A DNA stretch of 64,000 nucleotides from Myxococcota bacterium (GTDB taxonomy: Bacteria; Myxococcota_A; UBA796; UBA2385): the NCBI GenBank assembly GCA_044344255.1, contig JBIJDH010000002.1, positions 160,001 through 224,000 of the forward strand, written 5' to 3'. Numbering within the stretch: position 1 is the first letter of the stretch; each line of letters begins with the position of its first letter. Shown here one piece after another: positions 44,212 through 62,529 of this stretch. The position numbers and the translations under genes were made by a program. Below the pieces are notes generated by a model. It was not told the DNA's origin. It saw only the letters and a program-made list of their open reading frames with translations, and ran no database searches.

Positions 44212-45483
44212 TCAACCCGAGGCGCCGTAGTCGCGCAGGGGCTCGGTGCGGGGCGGCTTGCCCTCGGTGATGACCTCCTCGGTGATCACCACCTCGCGCA
44301 GGTTGTCCTGGCTCGGGACCTCGTACATCACGTCGAGCATCATCGTCTCGATGATGGTGCGGAGGCCGCGGGCCCCCGTCTTCCGCTGCACCGCCTTGCG
44401 GGCGATGGCGCGGAGGGCCTCGTCGGTGAAGCTCAGCTTCACCTTCTCGAACTTGAAGAGCTTCTGGTACTGCTTGATGATCGAGTTCTTGGGCTCGGAG
44501 AGGATCGTGACCAGATCATCTTCTCCGAGCGGCTCAAGCACGGCCAGCACCGGCAGTCGGCCGATGAACTCGGGGATGAGGCCGAAGCGCTCGAGGTCCT
44601 CCGGCGTGGTGCGGCGGAGGAGGTTCTTCTTGTCTTTCTCGACCTGCTCGGGGTTGGCGTCGGCCTCCTGGTTGAAGCCGACCGTCTTCTTGCCCGTGCG
44701 GTGCTCGATGATTCGCTGGATACCCTCGAAGCTCCCGCCGCAGATGAACAGGATGTTCGAGGTGTCGATGTGCAGGTGCTCCTGGTTGGGCGTGCGCTTG
44801 TTGCCCTTGACCTGGATGCTGGCGTGGGTGCCTTCGATGATCTTCAGCAGAGCCTGCTGCACACCCTCGCCGGAGACGTCTCGGCTGACCGAGCTCGTGT
44901 ACGACTTCTTGGCGAGCTTGTCGATCTCGTCGATGTAGACGATGCCGCGGATGGTGCGCTCGACGTTGTTCCCGCTCGCCTGGTACAGGTTGAGGATGAT
45001 GTTCTCGACGTCCTCGCCCACGTAGCCAGCCTCGGTCAGCGTGGTGGCGTCGGCGACGACGAAGGGCACGTCGAGCAGGCGAGCGAGGGTCTGGGCGATG
45101 AGCGTCTTGCCCGTGCCGGTGGGCCCGATGAGCAGCACGTTCGACTTCTGGATCTCGACCTCGTTCGTCTGGCCCTCCGTCTTCTGGTTCACTTCGAGGC
45201 GCTTGTAGTGATTGTACACGGCGACCGCGATCTTCCGCTTCGCCTGGTCTTGGCCGATGATGTACTGATCGAGGAAGGCCTTGATACGGGCGGGCGGCGG
45301 CACCTTGGCGCTGCCCCACGCGATCGGCTTCGGCTGGTTGTTCTCCCGGATGATGTCCAGGCACAGTCGAATGCACTCCGAACAGATGTAGACGTTCGGG
45401 CCTGCGATGATCTTGTCCACCTCCCGCTGCGGCTTGTGGCAGAAGGAACAGGCGAGGCCGGAGGGCGTGGAGTACTTGGGCAT
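44212..45483 (-). CDS. clpX: ATP-dependent Clp protease ATP-binding subunit
   Basis: CSFC...ICSEC zinc finger, [41 protein letters not shown] loop, GARGLR. Confidence 0.97.
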
Positions 45484-45703
45484 CAGGGACCCGGGGGCCT
45501 TGGGCGCGAGGTTCGGGGGCGAGCGTGGGGCTGGCGTGCTCGGGAGCGTCGGGGGAGGTATCATCGAATCGCTCGGCCTCCCAGCCTCCGGGCTGCGGAG
45601 GGGTCGGCTTCGGACCCCCTCCGGGGGCCGCCAAAGCCCCAGCTTCGCCCGCCTGCTCCTCCACTCCCTCGGGTCCAGCGACCCCTGCAGAGGGTCCCGG
45701 CCG

Positions 45704-46927
45704 ATGTCATCCTCGACGCCCTATGTCGGCGACTACTACGACACCCTCGGCGTGGCCCGTGACGCCAGCGCCGAGGAGATCAAGAAGGCCTTCCGCAAGC
45801 TGGCCCGAGAGTGCCACCCCGACGTCGCGGGCGACAATGCGGCCACCACCGCCCGCTTCAACAAGGTTCGGGAGGCGTATGAAGAGCTGATCGACCCCAC
45901 CCGGCGGGCCCGCTACGACCGGCGCAACCAGCCGCGGGCCCCCCGCTCGCCCACCCCGGACGGCCTCCACCGCATGGCTGGGGGCTTCTATTACAAGACG
46001 GGCAGCCCCCACGGCACCGCCGGTCGCCCGGGGGGCAAGGGGAGCCCGAAGGGAAACCACCTCGACCTCGAGGACATCTTCGGCGACTTCGGCGGCAGCG
46101 ACTTCGGCTTTGGGGACAAGATGCACGCTGCCGCGGGCGGGGCCCCGCGCAGCGCCACCCCGCCGGCCGGCGCCGAGCGGCGGCCGGAGGGCTGGGGCCC
46201 CGCCGATCCCAGCGCCACGGGCCCCGCCGGCCCCGCCGGTCCGCATGGCCGCAGCGCCCCCGAGCGCGGCCCGGCGGCGCGGCAGGCGGGCCGCGACATC
46301 GCGCTCACCGTCGATGTCCCCGCCGCCATCGCCGCCCGCGGCGGCACCGTGACCCTGCACTACCCGCGGCTCCGCCTCGGCGAGGACGGTCAGAACCTCT
46401 TCCGCTACGAAGAGCTCCACGACCTCCGCGTGCCCCCGGGCACCCGCCACGGCGAGTCCCTGCGGGTCGAGAAGTACGGGGACGCGGGCAACGACGGCAC
46501 CTTCGGTGACCTCGTCTGTGACATCCGTCTCGTCGGCGTGGCGCCGCCCCCGGTGGCCGGCTTTCAGTCGGCCGACGTCCGCACCCCCCGCGCGTCGCCT
46601 CCGCCCCCCGCGGCGGCCCCCCCCTCCGCGGGGCCGGGGCCCGAGGCGGCGGTGGTCCTCGTGCCGATCGGCGTCGCAGAGGCCCTGCTCGGCGGGCGCA
46701 TCGAGGTCGAGACCCCCGCCGGTCGGGTGCGGGTGAGCATCCCCCCCTGCACCTCCTCCGGCACCCGCCTCCGCCTGCGCGGCAAGGGCGCGGGCGGAGC
46801 CGACGTCCTCGCTGAGCTCCGCATCGTGGTGCCGAAGCGTCTCGATGACGAGAGCCGCGACCTCATCGAGCGCTTCGCGGCCCTCAACCCTGACTATGTG
46901 GGCGCCGTCGAGCCTCCCGTCCGGTGA
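45704..46927 (+). CDS. DnaJ-class co-chaperone without zinc finger (CbpA-like)
   Basis: [17 protein letters not shown], two C-terminal DnaJ_C repeats (VPPGT..G, EALLGG, LRLRGKG). Confidence 0.9.
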
Positions 46928-47814
46928 GGCACAAGGCGCAGCCGCTCGACGGTGCCCGCGGTCGCGGTCGCGCCTACACCCCGGCCCGGGCCTGGTGGGA
47001 GAGCTGGATGGGCCCCCTCTTTGGCGAGGGCTGGCCGGCTCGTTGGTGGTCGGCCCTGCCGGGGGCCCTCCGGGTGGACACGCTGTCCGTAGACCTCCCT
47101 TGCCTGCCGCCCGGCTGCCCGCCCCTTCGGATCGGGTTCGCCTCCGATCTGCACCTGGGGCCCACCACCAGCCCGGCGCTGCTGGCTCGGGCCCAGGCGA
47201 TCCTGGCCGAGGCGGGCCTCGATCTGCTCCTGTTGGGCGGTGACTTTGTCTTTCTGGAGGCCACCGAGGTGAAGGCGGCGGCCTTGGCGGCTTGGGTCGA
47301 GGGCATCCCCGCGCGCTGGAAGATGGCGGTGCTGGGCAACCACGATCTGTGGACCCGCCACGATCGATTGGAGGCGGCCCTCGAGGCGGTGGGGGTAGAG
47401 TGGATCATCAACCGCGGCCGCCCGCTCGACGGTGAGCACCGCGCCATCGGTGTCTTCGGCCTGGACGACCCCTGGACGGGCGAACCGGATCCGGCCGCAG
47501 CCCTGGCCGGTGTGGCACAGTGCTCGGTCCGCATCGGCCTCGTTCATGCCCCCGACGGCCTGCCCCTGCTGCCGCCCGGGGTCGCCACGGTCCTGTTCTC
47601 TGGGCACACCCACGGCGGCCAGCTCGCCCTGCCGGGCGGTGTGCCGCTCTATGTTCCCGGGCTGGCGGGGCAGCGCTGGCCCTGGGGCCGCCACGAGGTC
47701 GATGGGACCACGCTGCTCGTCTCCCGGGGCCTGGGCGGAGTGGAGATCCCGATGCGCCTGTTCGCGCCGCCCGATGTGTGGGTGGTCAACCTGCTGCCGC
47801 GCGCGGCTGCGTAG
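46924..47814 (+). CDS. Calcineurin-like metallophosphoesterase (YkuE/YaeI type)
   Basis: SDLH, GGDF, GNHD, HAPD, SGHTHGGQ, VSRGLG. Confidence 0.92.
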   Translation: MRHKAQPLDGARGRGRAYTPARAWWESWMGPLFGEGWPARWWSALPGALRVDTLSVDLPCLPPGCPPLRIGFASDLHLGPTTSPALLARAQAILAEAGLDLLLLGGDFVFLEATEVKAAALAAWVEGIPARWKMAVLGNHDLWTRHDRLEAALEAVGVEWIINRGRPLDGEHRAIGVFGLDDPWTGEPDPAAALAGVAQCSVRIGLVHAPDGLPLLPPGVATVLFSGHTHGGQLALPGGVPLYVPGLAGQRWPWGRHEVDGTTLLVSRGLGGVEIPMRLFAPPDVWVVNLLPRAAA

Positions 47815-47819
47815 ATGTG

Positions 47820-48014
47820 TCAACCGGTCACGCCGCTACTCTCGATGAGGGCCCAACCGTGGACCTTCGCGCCGAAGCGGGTGGGCCGCTCGGCGAGGAG
47901 GTTGAGGGAGGCCTGGCAGTCGTCGTCGGAGTGGAAGATCGGCGCGCGGCGGGCGCTCCGGTTTAGGACGGGATGGCGGGCGTGCTCGTCGGCGAGGCGC
48001 GGCGAGCGAGGCAT
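47820..48014 (-). pseudogene. Truncated RAYT / IS200-like (Y1 HUH) transposase remnant
   Basis: MPRSPRL....ARHPVLNRSARRAPIFHSDDDC...LNLL.....RFGAKVHGWALI matches the Y1_Tnp N-terminus (H.V.NRG..R..IF..D.D...FL..L....RF...VH.Y.LM.NH.H) but breaks off just before the HUH motif. Confidence 0.7.
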
Positions 48015-48042
48015 GGGGGGAGGGTGGCGTGGTGGCGAGAAC

Positions 48043-48073
48043 GGGCAAAGGGCAAAGGGCAAAGCCTGGCACC
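48043..48073 (+). repeat. GGGCAAA x3 followed by GCCTGGCACC, just upstream of the transposase remnant
   Basis: Directly visible heptamer tandem repeat. Confidence 0.7.
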
Positions 48074-48075
48074 GC

Positions 48076-48744
48076 GATATCGGCGGGAGCCTCGAGCTGG
48101 ACTCGAACAGCTCCTTCCAGGCGACCCTCTGCGACTTCGGCTCCTCGACCACGAGCACCGAGAACACGGGCACCGACCTCCTGCTCGATTCTGCGTATCT
48201 CCCCTACGAGTATGACGAGGACGCGACCTTCACCTGCACAGACACCTACTGTGGGACCAAGACCACGAGCGCCTTCGGTGGCACCACCACCACCGCCTCG
48301 GCGAGCAGTGGGGCGCGGGGCAACATCGTGCTGGCGACGAAGAGCGCCACCATCGGGGGCTTCACGATGTACCTCGACCCGCCGAGCGCTTCGTGCAGCC
48401 TGACCTCCTACGTCCTCTCGGCCTCCTCCCTCAGCGGCACCTGGCGGGTGGACGACGCCTACGCCGATACCTTCGGCAGCACCGCGGGTAAGTACTACAC
48501 CGGCTTCGCCGGGGGCGTCGCCGTGGAGGTCGGTCGGTACTACGCCTTCGTCATGGGCTGGAGCTGCACCTCGGGCGTGACCTACGCGAGCAACAGCGCG
48601 GGGGCCTCCTCGCTCGACGCCGGCTTCGGCACCACCGCCGGTTACTGGTCGGACAGCACCTTCACGGGCTACTCGGGCACCACCGCCTCCTTCGCGAGCT
48701 CGAGCAGCACCCGGTATGGGATGACGGTCACCTGGTCGCATTGA
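48076..48744 (+). pseudogene. Headless C-terminal fragment of a Ser/Thr/Gly-rich extracellular protein
   Basis: Strong coding bias (DIGGSLELDS...YGMTVTWSH) with no plausible start, RBS or signal peptide; the frame upstream runs through the transposase scar. Confidence 0.6.
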
Positions 48745-48777
48745 GTGGGATGGAGCGGCGCCGCCCGGTTGGATCGG

Positions 48778-48786
48778 TGCTACCTT
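48778..48786 (+). promoter_or_regulatory. Extended -10 element suggesting a leaderless transcript
   Basis: TG-C-TACCTT ending 6 nt before the A of ATG 48793; no SD sequence. Confidence 0.4.
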
Positions 48787-48792
48787 GTCCCG

Positions 48793-49152
48793 ATGCGCAC
48801 GATCGGATCGGTCCCCGCCGAGCTCCTCGCCTCCCTCGGCGGCGCGCGCCTGCCGACCCTCGAGAAGGTGGTGCGCTGGGTGGCCCCCCTCGGCGGTGAC
48901 ATCGTCGACATCGTCGTCCAGGACGAGTTCACGCACGACGTGGTCGTCGAGGTGGGCGGGGCCTTCCTGGTTTACGACACCACCTGACTGGGGGCGGTCA
49001 CCGCGGTCGCGGTGTGGGCGGAGCGGCCGAGCGCCGCGAGGATGCTCGCAGACCGGGTGGAGCGGGGCTGGTGGCCCAGAGAATCTCCCGTCGCGGTTGG
49101 GCCGAAGATCCTCGGCTTCGCGGCGTGCTTGGAGACGGGGGACTGTCCGTAG
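48793..49152 (+). CDS. Candidate selenoprotein, 119 aa, in-frame TGA (Sec) at codon 65
   Basis: Frame reads ...QDEFTHDVVVEVGGAFLVYDTT-TGA-LGAVTAVAVWAERPSAARMLADRVERGWWPRESPVAVGPKILGFAACLETGDCP-TAG; SECIS-like hairpin immediately 3' of the TGA. Confidence 0.65.
48999..49014 (+). promoter_or_regulatory. Bacterial SECIS-like hairpin
   Basis: CACCGC-GGTC-GCGGTG starting 11 nt after TGA 48985-48987. Confidence 0.6.
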
Positions 49153-49222
49153 GTCGGCGCGGTCCGCCGACCCCCCACTCCACCAGGAATCGGTCTCAAC
49201 CAGAAGTCGGTGCCATTTGGGC

Positions 49223-50926
49223 TCAGTAGTAGGTGACCGTTCCCCCGATGTTCTCAACGCCAACCTCGGCCAACCACCGCTCCACCTCGGCGTCTTCGAG
49301 GGCCCAGTTGCTCGTGATCTGCACGTCGCTGCCGATCGACTGAATGCCGTCGATTGCCGACAGATCGGTGAGAACATCGTTCCCATGAAGCACCAGGTGG
49401 GCGTCGAGGCTGGTCAGGCTCTCCAGGCCGGCGAGCGTCTCGATTTTGCTGCAGTTGTCTACTTGGACGGAGATCGTATGGGTGATCGGGCCCATTCCGA
49501 CCAGATTGACGAGCTTCGAGTCCCTGTAGAGGCTGAGGACGCCGACCTCGGTGAGGGATCCGAGCCCCTCCAAGGAGCGGATGCCCCTCATGTCCCAGAT
49601 GTCGAGCGAGCCCCCTACCCGTTGGAGACCGCTCAGGCCCGACAGGTCGGTGACCCGGTTCATGCCCGAGAGGTAGAGGTCGCCGGTGACCTCGCTCAAT
49701 TGTTCAAAGCCGGAGAGGGTGGTCGGGCTCGTGGAGTTGACGATGCTGATAGAGCCCGCGCTCCGGAGTGAGCTCAGTCCGGAGAAGTCGGTGATCTCGT
49801 GGTTGAGGTCATCCAGCCAGAGCAGGCCGCCCACCGACTCGAGCTGGGAGAGGGGGGAGAGATCGGTGACCGCGGGCAGCATGAAGTAGAGGTCTCCACC
49901 GAGAGAGACGAGGCCGGACAGGAAGTCAACATTGTCGAGGCCGGGGAGGTCCAGCTTGAGTCCTCCAGAAGGGGCGGTCAGGCTGGAGAGGTCGATGGAG
50001 AGGGCCTCCAACCTGTCGGTGGGCCAGGTGTCGAGGTGCAGGGTGCCGCCCACCTCCTCCAGGCTCCGGAGATCGAGCGTCGAGGTCCCATCGTAGAGGG
50101 TGAGCCAGAGGTCACCCCCGATGGACTCGAGGGAGTGCAGATCGACGAGCTCTGCGCCCGAGGTGCTCAGCCACATGTCGGTCCCGACCGTCCGAAGCGA
50201 GCCGAAGTCCATCAAGCTCCCGTTGCTGGGACAGTCCTGAGCGTAGAGGTAGCCCCCGAGCTCCTCCAGGGCGGGGAATCCTTGTAAGGTGGGCCACCCA
50301 TTTTCATAGATGGAGATGGCCCAGCTGACCCGTCGTAGGTTGGCGAGCCCGTCCAGATTGTCGAGGCCGCTGTTGTTGTTCACGAATACGGATCCGCTTA
50401 CTTCGACCAGGCAGGCGAGCTCATCAAGGTCCCCCAGCGAAGTGTCCTGGATCATCAGGTCTCCATGGATACGATCATAGGTGGAGCAGAGCTCCTCCAT
50501 GCCGTCCACCGTCCTGATCGAGACATCCCCATCGAAGGTCCCTCCTGTGCAGACCGGGTCCACATCGTCGCAGTCCTGCGCGATGCCATCCCCGCAGGGG
50601 TCGAAGGCCTCCGGGTGGGTGGAGGGTTCTGTGTCATCACAGTCGGTCGCGTCGGCTACGGTGTAGTGCGGCTGCACGCAAGACGTGGTGGAGACATTGA
50701 CGTCACCGTATCCATCGTCATCGGCGTCCGCGTACCAGATGGACGGGTCGATACAGTCACCTGTATCATCGGCGTCGCCGGTTCCCGAGTCAGCCCCGCT
50801 GTCTTCACTCCCTCCCTCGGTGTCCCCGGCGGTGTCGTCTGAGGAGGTGGTGGGAGGCCTGCCTTCCTCTTTGTCTCCACAGGCGATGAGCAAGAGGAGG
50901 GAGAGGGTGGCGGATGTCCGCGACAT
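49223..50926 (-). CDS. Lipoprotein with a Cys/Asp metal-binding repeat and receptor-L-domain / LRR-like repeats
   Basis: LLIAC lipobox; WYADADDDGYGD...DCDD...DCDD motif; many L.GL..L..VGG.L.I repeats; visibly lower GC3 than its neighbours. Confidence 0.85.
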   Translation of the reverse strand: MSRTSATLSLLLLIACGDKEEGRPPTTSSDDTAGDTEGGSEDSGADSGTGDADDTGDCIDPSIWYADADDDGYGDVNVSTTSCVQPHYTVADATDCDDTEPSTHPEAFDPCGDGIAQDCDDVDPVCTGGTFDGDVSIRTVDGMEELCSTYDRIHGDLMIQDTSLGDLDELACLVEVSGSVFVNNNSGLDNLDGLANLRRVSWAISIYENGWPTLQGFPALEELGGYLYAQDCPSNGSLMDFGSLRTVGTDMWLSTSGAELVDLHSLESIGGDLWLTLYDGTSTLDLRSLEEVGGTLHLDTWPTDRLEALSIDLSSLTAPSGGLKLDLPGLDNVDFLSGLVSLGGDLYFMLPAVTDLSPLSQLESVGGLLWLDDLNHEITDFSGLSSLRSAGSISIVNSTSPTTLSGFEQLSEVTGDLYLSGMNRVTDLSGLSGLQRVGGSLDIWDMRGIRSLEGLGSLTEVGVLSLYRDSKLVNLVGMGPITHTISVQVDNCSKIETLAGLESLTSLDAHLVLHGNDVLTDLSAIDGIQSIGSDVQITSNWALEDAEVERWLAEVGVENIGGTVTYY

Positions 50927-51476: not shown

Positions 51477-53873
<2,397 letters not shown>

Positions 53874-54013
53874 GACCCGCCTCGTAGCGCGATGGGGCCC
53901 GGGCGGGTAGGGCGGTCCTGTCGGCAGGCCCTCCACGGGCTGCGGACCCTCCCGGGAAGGCTCGGCGATGACGCAGGAGACGGGGGAGCCCGGCACCCCC
54001 GAGGACGGTGGCC

Positions 54014-57000
54014 ATGGAACTGCCCGCTCGCTTCGGGAAGTACGAGCTCATCGAGCACCTGGCGACCGGCGGAATGGCGGAGGTCTTCCTCGCGCGGAGC
54101 TTCGGGGTCGAGGGCTTCGAGAAGCGCCTCGTCATCAAGCGCATCCTCCCGGCGCTGTCGCGGGCGCGTCACTTCATCTCGCTGTTCATCCAGGAGGCGA
54201 GGGTCACGGCGGGGCTGTCGCACCCGAACATCGTGCAGTTCTACGAGCTCGGCAAGGTGGGCGACGAGCACTACATCGCGATGGAGCACATCCACGGCCG
54301 TGACCTCACGCAGACCAACCGGGCCCTGCGGCGAGAGGGGCGGCGGATGCCCGTGGCGCTCGCCGTCTATGTCGTGGCCAAGCTGCTGCGCGGCCTCGGC
54401 TACGCGCACTCTCACACCGACGCCCGCGGGCGCCCGCTGCGGCTCGTCCACCGCGACGTGAGCCCCCACAACGTCCTCCTCAGCTTTCAGGGCGAGGTCA
54501 AGCTCTTTGACTTCGGCATCGCGCGCCTCTTCTCGGACGGGGCCGACCCTGACCTCGCCCCCGCGCCCGGGCGGGCGGGCGGCAAGTTCGCCTACATGTC
54601 GCCCGAGCAGGCCGCCGGGCGGCCGATCGACCGCCGGAGCGACATCTACGCCGCGGGCATCGTCCTCTACGAGCTGCTCGTCGGTCACCGGCTCTTCCAG
54701 GACCCCGATCCCGAGGAGAAGCTGCGCCGGGTGCTGGCCGCCGACGTGACCGATCCGCGGGTCGAGGTGCCCGAGATCCCGGACGGTCTCTGGGCGATCC
54801 TCAAGCGCCTGCTGGCCCGCGATCCCGACGACCGGCCGGCCCGGGCCGAGCTCGCCGAAGAGGAGCTCCTGGGCTTCCTCTACTCGGAGGGCATGCGGGC
54901 CGACGCCGCCGGGATGGTGGCGCTGCTCGGGGAGCTGTTCCCCGAGGCCTCGGCCGACCGCCGCAGCAGCCTCGACCTCGAGGGGCTCGCCGCCGACCTC
55001 GGCCGCCTGCGGGTGCGCCCGGAGGAGCCCACCGAGCCCACCGGCTCCGACGAGAGCGCCGCCCCGCGCCCGGCGGGCATGCAGGCCCTCTCCCTCGGCG
55101 GCACAGCCGGAGAACGAAAGCCCATCTTCGCGCTCGTGGCCGAGGTCCTGGGCTTCACCGACCTCCCCGGGGGCGGCGAGCCCGAGCAGATCGTCCGCCG
55201 GCACCTCCGCTTCCTCCGGCGCATCCGATCCACCGTCGAGCGCTTCGGCGGGCGGGTGGAGCACTTCCAGGACGACACCCTGATCATCTTCTTCGGCGTG
55301 CCGCGGGCCACGGAGAATGACCTCGAGCGCTCGCTCGCCGCCGCCACCGCCCTGCACCGGGCCACGCGCCGGATGACCCGCGAGGGCCTGCCGGTGAGCC
55401 TCGGCATCGGGATCCATCGGGGCGAGGTGACGGTGGCCGGCGGCCCCCACAAGGCGCACCACCGCTACCTCGCGCAGGGCGACACGATGAAGCTCGCCCG
55501 TCGCCTCTGCTTCGAGGCCGAGGCGGGGCAGACCCTCGTGAGCGACCGGGTGGCCGCGCTCGCCGGCGACCGCTTCCGCTTCGGCGTCGGCCCCGACCTG
55601 CGTCTCAAGGGGCACCCGGGTCAGCGGCGCTCCTTTCTCCTGCTGGGCCCGCGTCACCGCGAGCTGCCGACGGGCGGCGCCTGGCTCCCGCGCAGCGCCG
55701 AGCTCGACGTGCTGCGCGAGGCCCTCGAGTGCCTCGCCCGGGAGCGCGGCGGCGTCGTCCTGGTGAGCGGCCCCACCGGCAGCGGGAAGTCGCGGCTGGT
55801 GCGCGAGCTCATGGGCCTCGCCCGCCTCCGCAGCGTGCCCCTCTACGCCGGCCGGGCCCTCCCCTACGAGGGCGATCGCCCGCTCGCCCCCTTCCGCGAG
55901 CTGGTGGGCAGCGTGCTCGGCGTCGAGTCGGGGGACGCGCCGGCCACCTTACGCGAGCGGCTCCTTCGCCTCGGTCAGCTCCACCTCTCGGAGTCCGAGC
56001 GCGGCACCATCGCCGCCCTCTTCGCCGTGGATCTGCAAGGGAGGCCCCCGGAGACCAGCGAGGACGCCGTCTTCCGGGCCGCCGCCGCCCTCGTGCTGGG
56101 CCTCGCCGAGGAGGGCCCCGTCCTGCTGGTGATGGAGGACGTGCACAACCTCGATCCCCTCGAGCAGCGCCTCCTCGGTCATGTGGTGCGCGTGTCCGCG
56201 GCCCGCCCCGTGCTCTTCCTCTTCACCGCCCGAGACGCCACGGCGCCCACCGGGGTGCGAGCCGACTGGGAGATCGCGCTCGGGCGGCTCGATCGGGCGG
56301 CGTTGGCCGAGCTCGTCCGGGAGCGGGTGGGCGCGGAGCAGGTGGGCGCCCCCCTCCTCGCCCTGGTGGACCGCACCGCCGAGGGCAACCCCCTCTACGT
56401 CGAGGCCGTGCTCGGCGCCCTCACCCAGGCGGGGCGCATCCACGTCGAGGGCGGGGTGGCCGAGCTCGTAGACCCCTCCCGGGATCCGCAGCTCCCGCCG
56501 GACATCGAGGGCCTGATCTCGGCCCGCATCGACGCCCTCGATCCCGTGGCGAAGGGCACCCTGCAGCTCTCCGCCACCCTCGGCATGAGCTTCCCGCCGG
56601 ATCTGCTGGCCGCTTGTCTCGGGCAGCTCGAGATCGAGGCCACCCTGCGGCCGCTCGAGCAGGCCGGGCTCATCAACCGCGACGAGTCGGGCAGCGAGGA
56701 GCGCTGCACCTTCAGCAGCTCGCTGGTCTGGGAGGTGGTGCGGCGCTCCATCCTCGGCATGCGGCGCCGCGACCTCCACCGGGTGGTGGCCGACGGCATC
56801 GAGCGCCTCTACGCCGATCGCCTCGACCTCCACCGCCAGGTGCTGGCCCGCCACTGCGCCGCCGGGGGGCGTTACCTCGACGCCGCCCGGCACGCCGAGC
56901 AGGCGGGGATCCACCTCCACAGCCAGCAGCTCGTCGAGCAGGCGGCCACCTGCTGGGACAAGGGCATCTCCTGGGTGGAGGACGCCCGGGCGAGCGGGGA

Positions 57001-58081
57001 GCGAGAGGGGGCCACCACCGAGCTCGAGATCAACCTCCGCCTCCGCGCCGGCGCGGCCTGGGCCCTCGTGGGCGCCTCGCGGCCGGCCGAGATGCACCTG
57101 CAGGTCGCCCTCGACCTCGCCGCTGAGGTGGGGGACACCGAGGTGGAGGCCCGCGCCGAGCTCGAGCTCGGCCGGCTCTACCGCAACCAGGGTCAGCTCG
57201 TGCCCGCGGGCGCGCACCTCGACAGCGCGCACGCGCTGGCGATCTGCGCCATCGAGGAGGGCACCGGCGCCCAGGTCTGGGCTCGAACCGTCGCCGTGGA
57301 GGCCTTGGAGTCCCTCGGGCGGCTCTGCCACGAGCTCGGCGAGCACGCCAAGGCCGCCGCTCACTTCGAGGAGGCGCGGGCGCGGGCCGGCGACGATGAC
57401 CGACTCGCCACCCGCGCGCTGCTCGGCCTCGCCGCCTGGCCGATCCGCCGGGAGGACGAAGCCGCCGCGCTCGCCCTGCTCGAGGAGGCCCTGCGCCGCT
57501 CCCGCCGCTCGCGGGACCGCATCCTCATCGGTCGGGTCATCAACAACATTGGGATCGTGCACCACGGGGCGGGCCGCTACGACGCGGCGCTCGACTGCTT
57601 CCGCGAGGCGCTGGAGCTGCGGCAGGGCCTCGGCTACCGGCAGGGCATGGTGGTCAACCTGCACAACATCGGCGACACCCACACCCGCCGCGGCGAGCCC
57701 GGGCGGGCCTGGGCGGCCTTCACCCAGAGCCGCGATCTCGCGCAGCAGATGGGCTGGGAGCCGGGCGTCCTGATGAGCGCCGCGTGGCTGTCCTTCCTCG
57801 AGGCCGAGCGGATGCGCGAAGACGCGGGGGAGGGTGTGGTCTCGATGGGGGGGAGCCTCCAGGCCGGCCGGATCCGCGAGGCCGCGGCGCGCGCCGAGGC
57901 CCTGGGCGATCCAGAGACGGGGCTCACCGCCCGCTGGCTGCTCGGTCGCCTGCTCATCGCCGAGGGGCGGCGTGGGGAGGCCCGGACGGCGCTGTTAGAC
58001 GCCCGGGCGCGCGCCCTCCGCCTCGAGGCCCGCGGCCTCCTCCGGGACGTCGAGGACGCCCTCTCCCGCCTGGACACCTGA
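54014..58081 (+). CDS. Ser/Thr kinase - class III cyclase-like - STAND/AAA ATPase - TPR multidomain protein
   Basis: GGMAEVF, HRDVSPHN, DFG, YMSPEQ; EVLGFT...IGIHRGEV...GDT; Walker A GPTGSGKS, Walker B VMEDVH, EGNPLY; TPRs (NNIGIVH, HNIGD). Confidence 0.92.
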   Translation: MELPARFGKYELIEHLATGGMAEVFLARSFGVEGFEKRLVIKRILPALSRARHFISLFIQEARVTAGLSHPNIVQFYELGKVGDEHYIAMEHIHGRDLTQTNRALRREGRRMPVALAVYVVAKLLRGLGYAHSHTDARGRPLRLVHRDVSPHNVLLSFQGEVKLFDFGIARLFSDGADPDLAPAPGRAGGKFAYMSPEQAAGRPIDRRSDIYAAGIVLYELLVGHRLFQDPDPEEKLRRVLAADVTDPRVEVPEIPDGLWAILKRLLARDPDDRPARAELAEEELLGFLYSEGMRADAAGMVALLGELFPEASADRRSSLDLEGLAADLGRLRVRPEEPTEPTGSDESAAPRPAGMQALSLGGTAGERKPIFALVAEVLGFTDLPGGGEPEQIVRRHLRFLRRIRSTVERFGGRVEHFQDDTLIIFFGVPRATENDLERSLAAATALHRATRRMTREGLPVSLGIGIHRGEVTVAGGPHKAHHRYLAQGDTMKLARRLCFEAEAGQTLVSDRVAALAGDRFRFGVGPDLRLKGHPGQRRSFLLLGPRHRELPTGGAWLPRSAELDVLREALECLARERGGVVLVSGPTGSGKSRLVRELMGLARLRSVPLYAGRALPYEGDRPLAPFRELVGSVLGVESGDAPATLRERLLRLGQLHLSESERGTIAALFAVDLQGRPPETSEDAVFRAAAALVLGLAEEGPVLLVMEDVHNLDPLEQRLLGHVVRVSAARPVLFLFTARDATAPTGVRADWEIALGRLDRAALAELVRERVGAEQVGAPLLALVDRTAEGNPLYVEAVLGALTQAGRIHVEGGVAELVDPSRDPQLPPDIEGLISARIDALDPVAKGTLQLSATLGMSFPPDLLAACLGQLEIEATLRPLEQAGLINRDESGSEERCTFSSSLVWEVVRRSILGMRRRDLHRVVADGIERLYADRLDLHRQVLARHCAAGGRYLDAARHAEQAGIHLHSQQLVEQAATCWDKGISWVEDARASGEREGATTELEINLRLRAGAAWALVGASRPAEMHLQVALDLAAEVGDTEVEARAELELGRLYRNQGQLVPAGAHLDSAHALAICAIEEGTGAQVWARTVAVEALESLGRLCHELGEHAKAAAHFEEARARAGDDDRLATRALLGLAAWPIRREDEAAALALLEEALRRSRRSRDRILIGRVINNIGIVHHGAGRYDAALDCFREALELRQGLGYRQGMVVNLHNIGDTHTRRGEPGRAWAAFTQSRDLAQQMGWEPGVLMSAAWLSFLEAERMREDAGEGVVSMGGSLQAGRIREAAARAEALGDPETGLTARWLLGRLLIAEGRRGEARTALLDARARALRLEARGLLRDVEDALSRLDT

Positions 58082-61603: not shown

Positions 61604-62529
61604 CAGACCTTCTCCATCACCGCCCGCCCGAGCAGCCCTTGAGGCCGGAACAGGAGGACGAGGATGAGCAAGCAGAACACGTAGACGTCGCGGAGGTGAG
61701 GGGAGAGGTAGGCGGCGCCGAACATCTCGATCAGGCCGATGAGCAGGCCCCCCATCATCGCCCCGCGCAGGTTGCCGATGCCGCCGACCACCGCGGCCAC
61801 GAAGGCCTTGAGGCCGAGGAGGATCCAGGTCGGGTGCGCCGACTGGTTGATGCCCGGGTACTTCGCCGCCGTGAGGAAGCCTGCAGCGGCGGCCAGCGCC
61901 GAGCCGACGACAAAGGTGAAGGAGATCACGCGGTCGACGGGGATGCCCATCAGCGCGGCGGTGCGGGTGTCGTAGCTGACCGCGCGCATCGCGAGGCCGA
62001 GGCGGGTGTTGTGGATGATCCACTCGAGCGCCGCCATCAGGGCGAGGGCGACGCCCACGACGAGCACGTCTACGAGCTGGACCTGGACCCCCGCCACTTC
62101 GAAGAGGCTGGCCTCGGGGAGGAGGGTGGGCATCCGCTGGGGCTGCGCGCCGAAGGCGACCGGGAGCTGCCCGGTGTTCTCGATGAACAGGGAGACGCCG
62201 ATCGCGGTGATGAGCACGTTGATGCGGGGTGCGCCGCGCAGCGGACGGTAGGCGAGGCGCTCGATGATGAAGCCGAGGAGGCCGCAGATCGCCATCGAGC
62301 CGAAGAGCACGAAGACCCCGGCCCAGGCCGGCGGCGCGGCGTCGACCATGGCCCAGCCCATCGCCGAGGCGATGGCCCAGCTCACCCAGGCCCCCAGCAT
62401 GAACACGTCGCTGTGGGCGAAGTTGATGAAGCGGAGGATGCCGTAGACCATCGTGTAGCCGAGCGCGATGAGCGCGTAGAGGCTACCGACGGCCACGCCG
62501 TCCATCAGGGTCTGGAGGAGCTTGGTCAC
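61603..62529 (-). CDS. livH: Branched-chain amino acid ABC permease
   Basis: YALIALGYTMVYGILRFINFAH, ERLAYRPLR, KAFVAAVVGGIG. Confidence 0.95.
   Translation of the reverse strand: MTKLLQTLMDGVAVGSLYALIALGYTMVYGILRFINFAHSDVFMLGAWVSWAIASAMGWAMVDAAPPAWAGVFVLFGSMAICGLLGFIIERLAYRPLRGAPRINVLITAIGVSLFIENTGQLPVAFGAQPQRMPTLLPEASLFEVAGVQVQLVDVLVVGVALALMAALEWIIHNTRLGLAMRAVSYDTRTAALMGIPVDRVISFTFVVGSALAAAAGFLTAAKYPGINQSAHPTWILLGLKAFVAAVVGGIGNLRGAMMGGLLIGLIEMFGAAYLSPHLRDVYVFCLLILVLLFRPQGLLGRAVMEKV

Follow-up and report, generated by a model that had tools for sequence, protein, structure and literature searches.

We describe a small gene of a Myxococcota bacterium in which, with a probability that we put at about 0.95, an in-frame TGA is decoded as selenocysteine (Sec) in a SelB-dependent manner within a 119-residue protein, insertion in vivo being what we infer from comparison of sequences. 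The gene belongs to an apparently uncatalogued selenoprotein family with canonical decoding and two alternative positions of its SECIS element. The continuous frame, the Sec/Cys codon column, a SECIS under selection and the presence of the Sec machinery are all established by comparison among homologues and their genomes. In the mechanism that we propose, a leaderless, stand-alone transcript would be read from the ATG; at UGA-65, SelB sitting on a stem-loop 11 nt downstream would deliver Sec-tRNA(Sec) to the ribosome, and translation would go on to the TAG to yield a 119-residue selenoprotein.

The gene, its transcript and its homologues

The gene lies in a stretch of 64,000 nt (hereafter the window), and its features are collected in Table 1. 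From the ATG at 48793 the frame runs through LVYDTT to the TGA and continues for 54 sense codons up to a TAG at 49150-49152, with U as residue 65, as the original prediction of one 119-residue protein extending past the TGA had it. That prediction also claimed a genome-like GC3 bias behind the TGA, and the values are indeed similar on both sides (0.95 on the 5' side, 0.89 on the 3' side), the long overlapping ORFs and frames having a GC3 of 0.57-0.64 and low-complexity translations. The host genome carries a single copy. By inspection, the protein has neither a signal peptide nor a lipobox. Its flanks in the window are an upstream ORF without assignment and a downstream convergent repeat protein (49223-50926, minus strand), which has 567 residues, looks secreted and combines a MopE-type putative metal-binding motif with receptor-L/LRR repeats; it is not a conserved neighbour of the selenoprotein family. 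Elsewhere in the window, 45407-47814 (+), 51477-53996 (-) and 54008-58081 (+) hold DnaJ-domain, metallophosphoesterase, Lon protease and Ser/Thr kinase-cyclase-AAA-TPR fusion genes, all ordinary for the phylum. Across the family, gene neighbours recur among close kin only, and 115 representative neighbours fall into unrelated Pfam families.

Table 1 Coordinates of the predicted selenoprotein gene and its features within the window
Feature	Position	Strand	Remarks
Extended -10-like element TG-C-TACCTT, putative leaderless-type promoter	48778..48786	+	6 nt before ATG; TAnnnT conserved
Predicted selenoprotein gene	48793..49152	+	119 residues, ~12.6 kDa, pI 4.7; AlphaFold2-modelled
QDEFTHD motif, residues 43-49, in the predicted beta1-beta2 loop	48919..48939	+	D44 and D49 invariant; aligns with QGEFHHD of the sister family
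In-frame TGA, predicted selenocysteine 65, D-T-T-U-L-G	48985..48987	+	Codon column in 174 loci and sister-family Cys
Bacterial SECIS, register A, 6-bp stem CACCGC-GGTC-GCGGTG, GGUC loop at 49005-49008	48999..49014	+	5-bp core kept in 69/69 non-Ser homologues
Cys112 of G-[HFY]-A-A-C, putative partner of Sec65	49126..49128	+	Present in 158/171 homologues
Cys118, lineage-specific, no family trait	49144..49146	+	C-x5-C in 4/80 and 8/171 homologues

The leaderless transcript originally suggested from the -10-like element is supported for part of the family: of 104 loci whose ATG is plausible, 36 have TAnnnT at a distance of 5-8 nt upstream of it (24 at exactly 6 nt), compared with 2-9 of 104 in five control windows, and Shine-Dalgarno-like words were seen in 14 of these 104 loci. 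The element was, however, missed by a sigma-70 consensus scan of the window, in which neither a canonical promoter nor a terminator turned up. For a related Myxococcus strain, raw RNA reads (one study, two runs) were compared with homologue L034. In run X22, both halves were covered without a break at a depth of 30-39 versus 6-10 by orientation, with about 15 on either side of the gene, while depths in X20 were 37-48 versus 22-30; eight RNA molecules have an end within the gene, 20 nt from the predicted start. Sense transcription across both halves is probable in that strain, which says nothing on read-through.

Among 174 homologous loci from Myxococcota, Acidobacteriota and metagenomes, the codon column is TGA in 172 and TGC in two; the frame past the column runs for at least 49 codons in every locus, and between codons -25 and +48 none of them has a stop codon other than the TGA of the column. 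Some duplicates are present in this set, in which 146 distinct 39-mers flank the TGA. A scan of 185,579 species genomes yielded 104 relatives, from Myxococcaceae including Myxococcus xanthus, Kofleriaceae, Polyangia, Pyrinomonadaceae and other Acidobacteriota; the best-scoring 80 of the 104 were kept and comprise 79 TGA loci and one TGC locus, with a continuation of 49-99 codons that is conserved in sequence. The best 80 of 421 metagenome relatives gave the same numbers (79 TGA, one TGC). Since best-scoring loci favour cases with both halves, these counts leave decayed copies among the rest possible. Furthermore, 14 parsed TGA loci, the window gene among them, came from a sample of 301 genomes of the window's phylum, and ten carriers in a 201-genome sample of Acidobacteriota had nine TGA and one TGT. 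The Cys codons are TGC in L022 and L210 and TGT in L223. In viral contigs, none of 46 pattern matches was confirmed.

That homologues should be conserved on both sides of the TGA, with TGA or Cys at the column in DNA, had been set beforehand as a test able to refute the prediction, and the 172 plus 2 of 174 loci came out in its favour. A pseudogene created by a nonsense mutation peculiar to this strain, which has the stop codon itself on its side and nothing else, was already ruled out by this homologue set and is next to impossible: the same TGA recurs in two phyla among proteins that are 37-73% identical, residues downstream of it are conserved, and synonymous sites are under constraint.

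The pooled database matches (165 distinct proteins) mirror how such genes are annotated, as they consist of 102 N-terminal halves ending at the stop, 27 C-terminal halves and 36 spanning proteins, in keeping with the earlier expectation that standard annotation would yield a stub. The many halves are also what one would see if the locus held two small genes, with a 64-residue N-terminal product and a 50-residue C-terminal one initiated within the gene at GTG or CTG, or if the TGA were a true stop followed by a conserved downstream element. We consider this highly improbable, for a single codon separates the two halves in every case and both share one frame, the Cys forms found in nature are undivided proteins, the related Cys-only family described below is one chain, and the break would fall inside a beta-hairpin of a single, confidently modelled domain.

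Several loci deserve a remark of their own. Two records, L003:3001-3351 (a MAG labelled Klebsiella pneumoniae) and L063:2929-3309 (Comamonas sp.), nest within Myxococcota and are probably mis-binned or mislabelled. Three near-identical copies, L014, L018 and L020, lie on separate contigs of one genome, two with identical flanks, and reflect either duplication or assembly redundancy. On a FastTree tree of 105 rows, the distribution of Cys forms takes eight changes, at least three of them forced by well-supported branches, although the few alignment columns make the tree a rough guide only; such scattered Cys forms would fit, as expected, repeated exchange of Sec for Cys.

A SECIS hairpin in two registers

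The original prediction placed a stem-loop 11 nt after the TGA. Folded alone, this hairpin has an energy of -9.3 kcal/mol. When the 51 nt starting at the TGA are folded, however, another structure has the lowest energy (z = 0.07), and 541 of 5744 GC-rich in-frame TGAs of the host genome also satisfy a loose rule for such hairpins, so that the hairpin alone is weak evidence and its reality rests on comparative data. Within the ensemble of 60 nt its pair probability is 0.01, as other folds outcompete it, and with nt 13-36 alone it rises to 0.85-1.0; the ribosome would cover the first bases downstream of the UGA. A search of Rfam with window positions 48000-50000 gave no match, and a generic SECIS scan of the whole host genome was too unspecific to list its selenoproteome.

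In 80 aligned sequences the stem carries 29 double-sided changes, compared with 15.3 ± 2.7 in shuffles (0/500 reaching this value). Yet in the same mixed alignment pairing amounts to only 69%, and a hairpin slid by -3 covaries better than the predicted one (0.173 versus 0.153), both because the family uses two hairpin registers. Counting the U of UGA as nt 1, register A, found with Ala or Val at codon +8, pairs nt 15/16-20 with 25-29/30 around the loops GGUC (49 sequences), AGUU (19) or GGUU (1), whereas register B, found with Ser at codon +8, pairs nt 21/22-26 with 32-36/37 around a loop that is mostly CGUGU (66/77). The hairpin as first drawn therefore stands for register A members, but about half of the family uses the shifted register B.

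A full stem in one register was found in 145 of the 146 distinct TGA-flanking sequences, and in both registers in none. The five-pair core of register A occurs in all 69 non-Ser sequences, where a codon-matched null (synonymous codons resampled from the same genes, 2000 rounds) gives 29.6 ± 4.2 with a maximum of 43; that of register B occurs in 76 of 77 Ser sequences, for which the null is 18.6 ± 3.8 with a maximum of 33. As the sequences are related, such counts are not independent trials. Covariation is seen at synonymous sites, pair 18-27 being GC in 59, CG in seven and AU in three sequences and pair 21-24 being GC in 49 and AU in 19. The first 80 loci served to define the registers, and all 75 new sequences held out from that definition fit one of them; with the origin shifted by whole codons, only 0-11 of 147-163 sequences fit. 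In a later Acidobacteriota set, six of seven parsed TGA loci fit a register and one did not. On the tree, the register must have changed at least three times. The claim of a stem-loop at 11 nt that covaries in homologues has thus been upheld far above the codon-matched null, and on these comparative grounds we hold that the hairpin is a real SECIS.

This element can be compared with known ones. The consensus bSECIS has a loop of 3-9 nt, a G in the first two loop positions, a distance of 16-37 nt from the UGA and an energy of at most -7.5 kcal/mol (PMC13188914); both registers conform, with loops 17 nt (A) or 23 nt (B) from the UGA, and the loop G is followed by G or U as in that model (PMC13188914). 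For Escherichia coli fdhF, the stem spans nt 15-31 with U17, G23 and U24 as key bases (PMC8659212). The two systems are alike in the UGA at a Cys-equivalent column, the 11-nt spacer and the SelA, SelB, SelC and SelD of the host (PMC8659212). Of the fdhF likeness claimed originally, the start at nt 15 stood; the GU of the window's hairpin is at G22/U23 instead of G23/U24, there is no bulged U17, and the registers of the family are tied to Ala or Ser at codon +8.

Selenocysteine machinery and companion selenoproteins

The genes selA, selB, selC and selD, whose presence had been proposed as a check, were all found in the host genome, selA, selB and selD above curated cut-offs and the tRNA-Sec with anticodon TCA. 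Among 50 carrier genomes tested, corresponding to 50 of the 80 genome-scan loci, 49 have a selA match, 48 of them above the cut-off and one in three pieces; selB, selC and selD were looked for in five to six carriers each. Further Acidobacteriota carriers have selA in nine of nine cases. In the phylum sample, selA is present in 188 of 301 genomes overall and in all 15 TGA carriers, of which 11 belong to the window's class, whose members almost all have selA; beyond this class the figures are 4/4 for carriers versus 131/242. Two large families without selA (0/26 and 0/18) have no TGA form. None of the refutations named with the claim that UGA is decoded as Sec was borne out.

One carrier, the MAG G024, lacks matches to selA and selB as well as a tRNA-Sec that passes the cut-off, which could speak for reading of UGA as Trp or Cys through a changed code or a suppressor tRNA. 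The residues at the column in the 36 spanning database proteins (C 15, W 9, R 3, S 3, P 2, one each of L, G and H, and one gap) seem to point the same way, nine of them being Trp. We nonetheless regard such a reading as very unlikely. A changed code is excluded because 171 of 174 loci encode the conserved Trp75 by TGG, and none by TGA, and because the terminal stop of the same genes is TGA in 109 of 174. Furthermore, the only alternatives seen in DNA are TGC and TGT, and the hairpin is degraded in two of the three Cys-codon loci (loop AGUA in L022, broken stem in L223). The selD of G024 has an in-frame TGA itself, which suggests an incomplete assembly. Of the Trp proteins, the only one traced (P0011) is an exact code-4 translation of the TGA locus L038 (2923-3282) and reads past the terminal TGA too; code 4 had been chosen by gene callers, which turns both the Sec codon and the terminal TGA into Trp, and entries of this kind mimic Trp homologues. 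A single base separates TGA from codons for each of W, R, S, L and G, so that sequence errors or decay are plausible sources of these residues.

With decoding of the TGA as Sec as the preferred reading, a further comparison is offered by other selenoprotein genes, since both loop types recur in those of known type in the same host lineages. The strict form of register A occurs at nine of 161,710 TGAs of the host genome; one of these is the window gene and another a thioredoxin-like gene with the motif F-A-T-W-U-P-A-C, in which GGUC occupies the identical nt 21-24. This gene (contig C18 of the host genome G000, minus strand, TGA at 62252, outside the window) encodes a second selenoprotein of the host. 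Its formate dehydrogenase alpha gene (L215, G000:C54:29849-31120, minus strand) has an in-frame TGA in C-N-R-T-U-H-A-P and a GGUC-containing hairpin, with GGUC at nt 22-25 after the TGA. The SelD of the host is a Cys form located at the end of a 793-codon frame (L084). Register B-like hairpins were found in SelW-like genes: CxxU genes of four Myxococcaceae genomes form a 7-bp stem around a CGUGC loop, and one from a Kofleriaceae genome has the loop CGGGC. These SelW/Rdx-like C-x-x-U genes (L247-L251, from Myxococcus, Pyxidicoccus and a Kofleriaceae genome) have the 7-bp stem 21 nt after the UGA.

In M. xanthus AM003 and the complete genome of Corallococcus exercitus, SelD is a Cys form, and their molybdopterin and AhpC/TSA matches showed no TGA; the SelW-like selenoprotein is present in M. 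xanthus and has no match in C. exercitus. The notion that our protein might be the only selenoprotein of M. xanthus was rejected, as the SelW-like CxxU gene is also there. From the four families checked in the two species, which do not amount to a census, this protein would be one of few Sec users there.

Novelty, predicted fold and possible function

The original prediction recognised no classical selenoprotein family in this gene, and none was matched: Pfam, NCBIfam 20.0 and PHROGs hold no family for the query, and among 87 aligned members nothing recurred in Pfam or NCBIfam and no match fell below E 0.008, while the same library search recognised SelW-like and FdhA proteins as positive controls. 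One homologue matched pPIWI_RE_Y (PADLOC/Pfam) at E 0.008-0.03 through an unrelated N-terminal stretch, and this candidate was rejected. Neither D-T-T-U-L-G nor QDEFTHD matches a motif listed for the 119 prokaryotic selenoprotein families in Table 1 of a 2026 review (PMC13188914), which includes the families of Haft and Tolstoy 2025 (PMC13188914). New families found by deep-Sep come from other lineages, as far as the available part of that report goes (PMC12013277), and BSepDB searches known families only (PMC13326102); the motifs are absent from the part of its supplement before Table S2. Searches of the literature on Myxococcota selenoproteins, on families new since 2021 and for both motifs found no description among the matches listed. 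Unvalidated new candidates from groundwater genomes were reported by Deng et al. 2026, as cited in PMC13188914, and the family could be among them. It resembles the 119 catalogued families in being small, with a single Sec, Cys homologues and a probable redox or metal-linked role (PMC13188914).

AlphaFold2, run on an 87-row alignment with U as C, gave a confident model (pLDDT 96.8, pTM 0.89; pLDDT above 90 for 115 of 119 residues) with helices at 9-14 and 23-33, strands at 36-42, 47-54, 57-64 and 68-75, and helices at 81-90 and 109-115. The predicted fold is a compact alpha/beta domain in which a four-stranded meander lies between helices, apparently not a thioredoxin fold, whereas catalogued families are mostly of thioredoxin fold with UxxC or CxxU (PMC13188914). 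In the model, Sec65 occupies the turn between beta3 and beta4 (T-T-U-L-G-A-V), and no UxxC, CxxU or TxxU stands at the start of a helix; the meander topology would place Sec65 next to the acidic Q43-D49 loop, on the same edge. Foldseek returned no match at E <= 0.001 in the PDB or among viral models, the VIA-align matches listed include neither a thioredoxin nor a MerB fold, sequence searches of the PDB with the profiles of this and the sister family gave best E values of 1 and 0.38, and in the ESM Atlas the best scores of a natural Cys homologue and a sister protein were 0.78 and 0.77, below lead level. The best structural neighbour is OsmE (4dm5_A; Z 6.6, below the tool's caution level of 8; rmsd 2.7 Å), and a possible likeness to the small alpha-beta domains of OsmE, BamE and BLIP lies in this superposition of 79 residues; identity is 5%, and those are secreted lipoproteins, whereas inspection of this protein showed neither signal nor lipobox. 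For the sister-family model, the Z towards OsmE/BamE/BLIP-like domains is only 3.9.

This sister family is Cys-only, about 147 residues long, and has the motifs H-W-x-Q-G-E-F-H-H-D, T-N-C-N-G-G, R-C-P and H-W-F-D-P-C. HHalign relates it to the Sec family with a probability of 97% (E 9e-11, 79 columns), and the invariant Cys of its T-N-C-N-G-G aligns with the Sec column. A joint alignment shows no exception at D49, the Sec/Cys column, P79 and R88, and in it Cys112 corresponds, across a gap, to the cysteine of F-D-P-C. The sister model folds confidently with the same order of secondary structure and, as in the Sec family, no conserved operon was seen; the sister family differs in having no TGA at the column, additional Cys and His and, at its C-terminus, an extension with R-Q-R-G-G-G-W. 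With at least 1594 clusters, it is unnamed or 'hypothetical' in all 120 listed members and has no Pfam or NCBIfam model and no fold match, and its loci and proteins (L101-L134, P0167-P0286) are worth study in their own right. It occurs in 18 of the 301 genomes of the phylum sample, 13 of these 18 without selA, and together with the Sec form in none, where about one overlap is expected by chance. A search for fusions was uninformative, as its six longer matches all belong to the sister family and several look like read-through or frameshift artefacts.

What the protein does can be approached through Sec chemistry and the conserved residues. In the Sec family, D44, D49, G67, P79, W93 and G108 are invariant. 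The original prediction suggested that the C-terminal pair C-x5-C-P could be resolving residues of a small redox or metal-binding protein. Of the two cysteines, residue 112, the first, turned out to be a feature of the family, though some TGA-bearing members do without it and at least eight have no Cys in their last 30 residues; residue 118, the second, is not, and the pair as such fails as a family trait. A selenol/thiol redox centre in which Sec65 is the nucleophile, normally but not necessarily resolved by Cys112, has about even odds in our view. A less probable alternative is that Sec65 together with D44, E45, H48, D49, D62 and C112 binds a metal or metalloid without selenenylsulfide cycling, in the style of MerB-like or metal-binding selenoproteins. 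The invariant or near-invariant acidic residues beside Sec speak for such a site, as does the invariant His/Cys/Asp set of the sister family (H38, H45, H46, D47, C68, C92, H113 and C118 in 46 aligned members); eight of 171 homologues, though, carry I, L or N instead of His48, and no metal-resistance or transport genes recur among the 115 neighbour proteins. A predicted homodimer with zinc, computed for natural homologues, scored 0.02 and speaks neither for nor against such a site. Catalysis by a non-redox nucleophile seems doubtful and ranks last, behind the redox centre and the metal or metalloid site; this ranking has less support than the decoding of TGA as Sec. A divergent clade (L092, L094-L097 and L099) with D-T-T-U-N-A is without His48 and mostly without Cys112 and has kept the TGA and the register-A SECIS; its U-N matches the C-N of the sister family.

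Carriers of the Sec family are, as we take them to be, largely aerobic soil and freshwater bacteria. New selenoprotein families have been linked mainly to low-oxygen life in reviews (PMC9312934), and the occurrence of this one in largely aerobic lineages stands in contrast to that link. Its description adds a selenoprotein family unrelated by sequence, motif or detectable fold to those catalogued, whose genes annotation splits. As it occurs in M. xanthus, a genetically tractable aerobe, Sec insertion and function are directly testable, and the sister family offers a route to function without selenium expression. The two interchangeable registers, each matching other selenoprotein genes of its host, constitute a natural experiment on the way in which SelB specificity may shape protein sequence. 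Taken together, we tentatively suggest, at slightly less than even odds, that the protein founds a hitherto undescribed superfamily that has its own fold, and that the Sec and Cys-only branches of this superfamily would carry out a new, non-thioredoxin-like selenium/thiol chemistry in aerobic Myxococcota and Acidobacteriota; that it would be among the few genes keeping the Sec machinery under selection in those myxobacteria in which SelD and formate dehydrogenase are Cys forms; and that its SECIS may have shifted between two positions several times through Ala/Ser exchange at codon +8, to suit the loop preferred by the SelB of the host.
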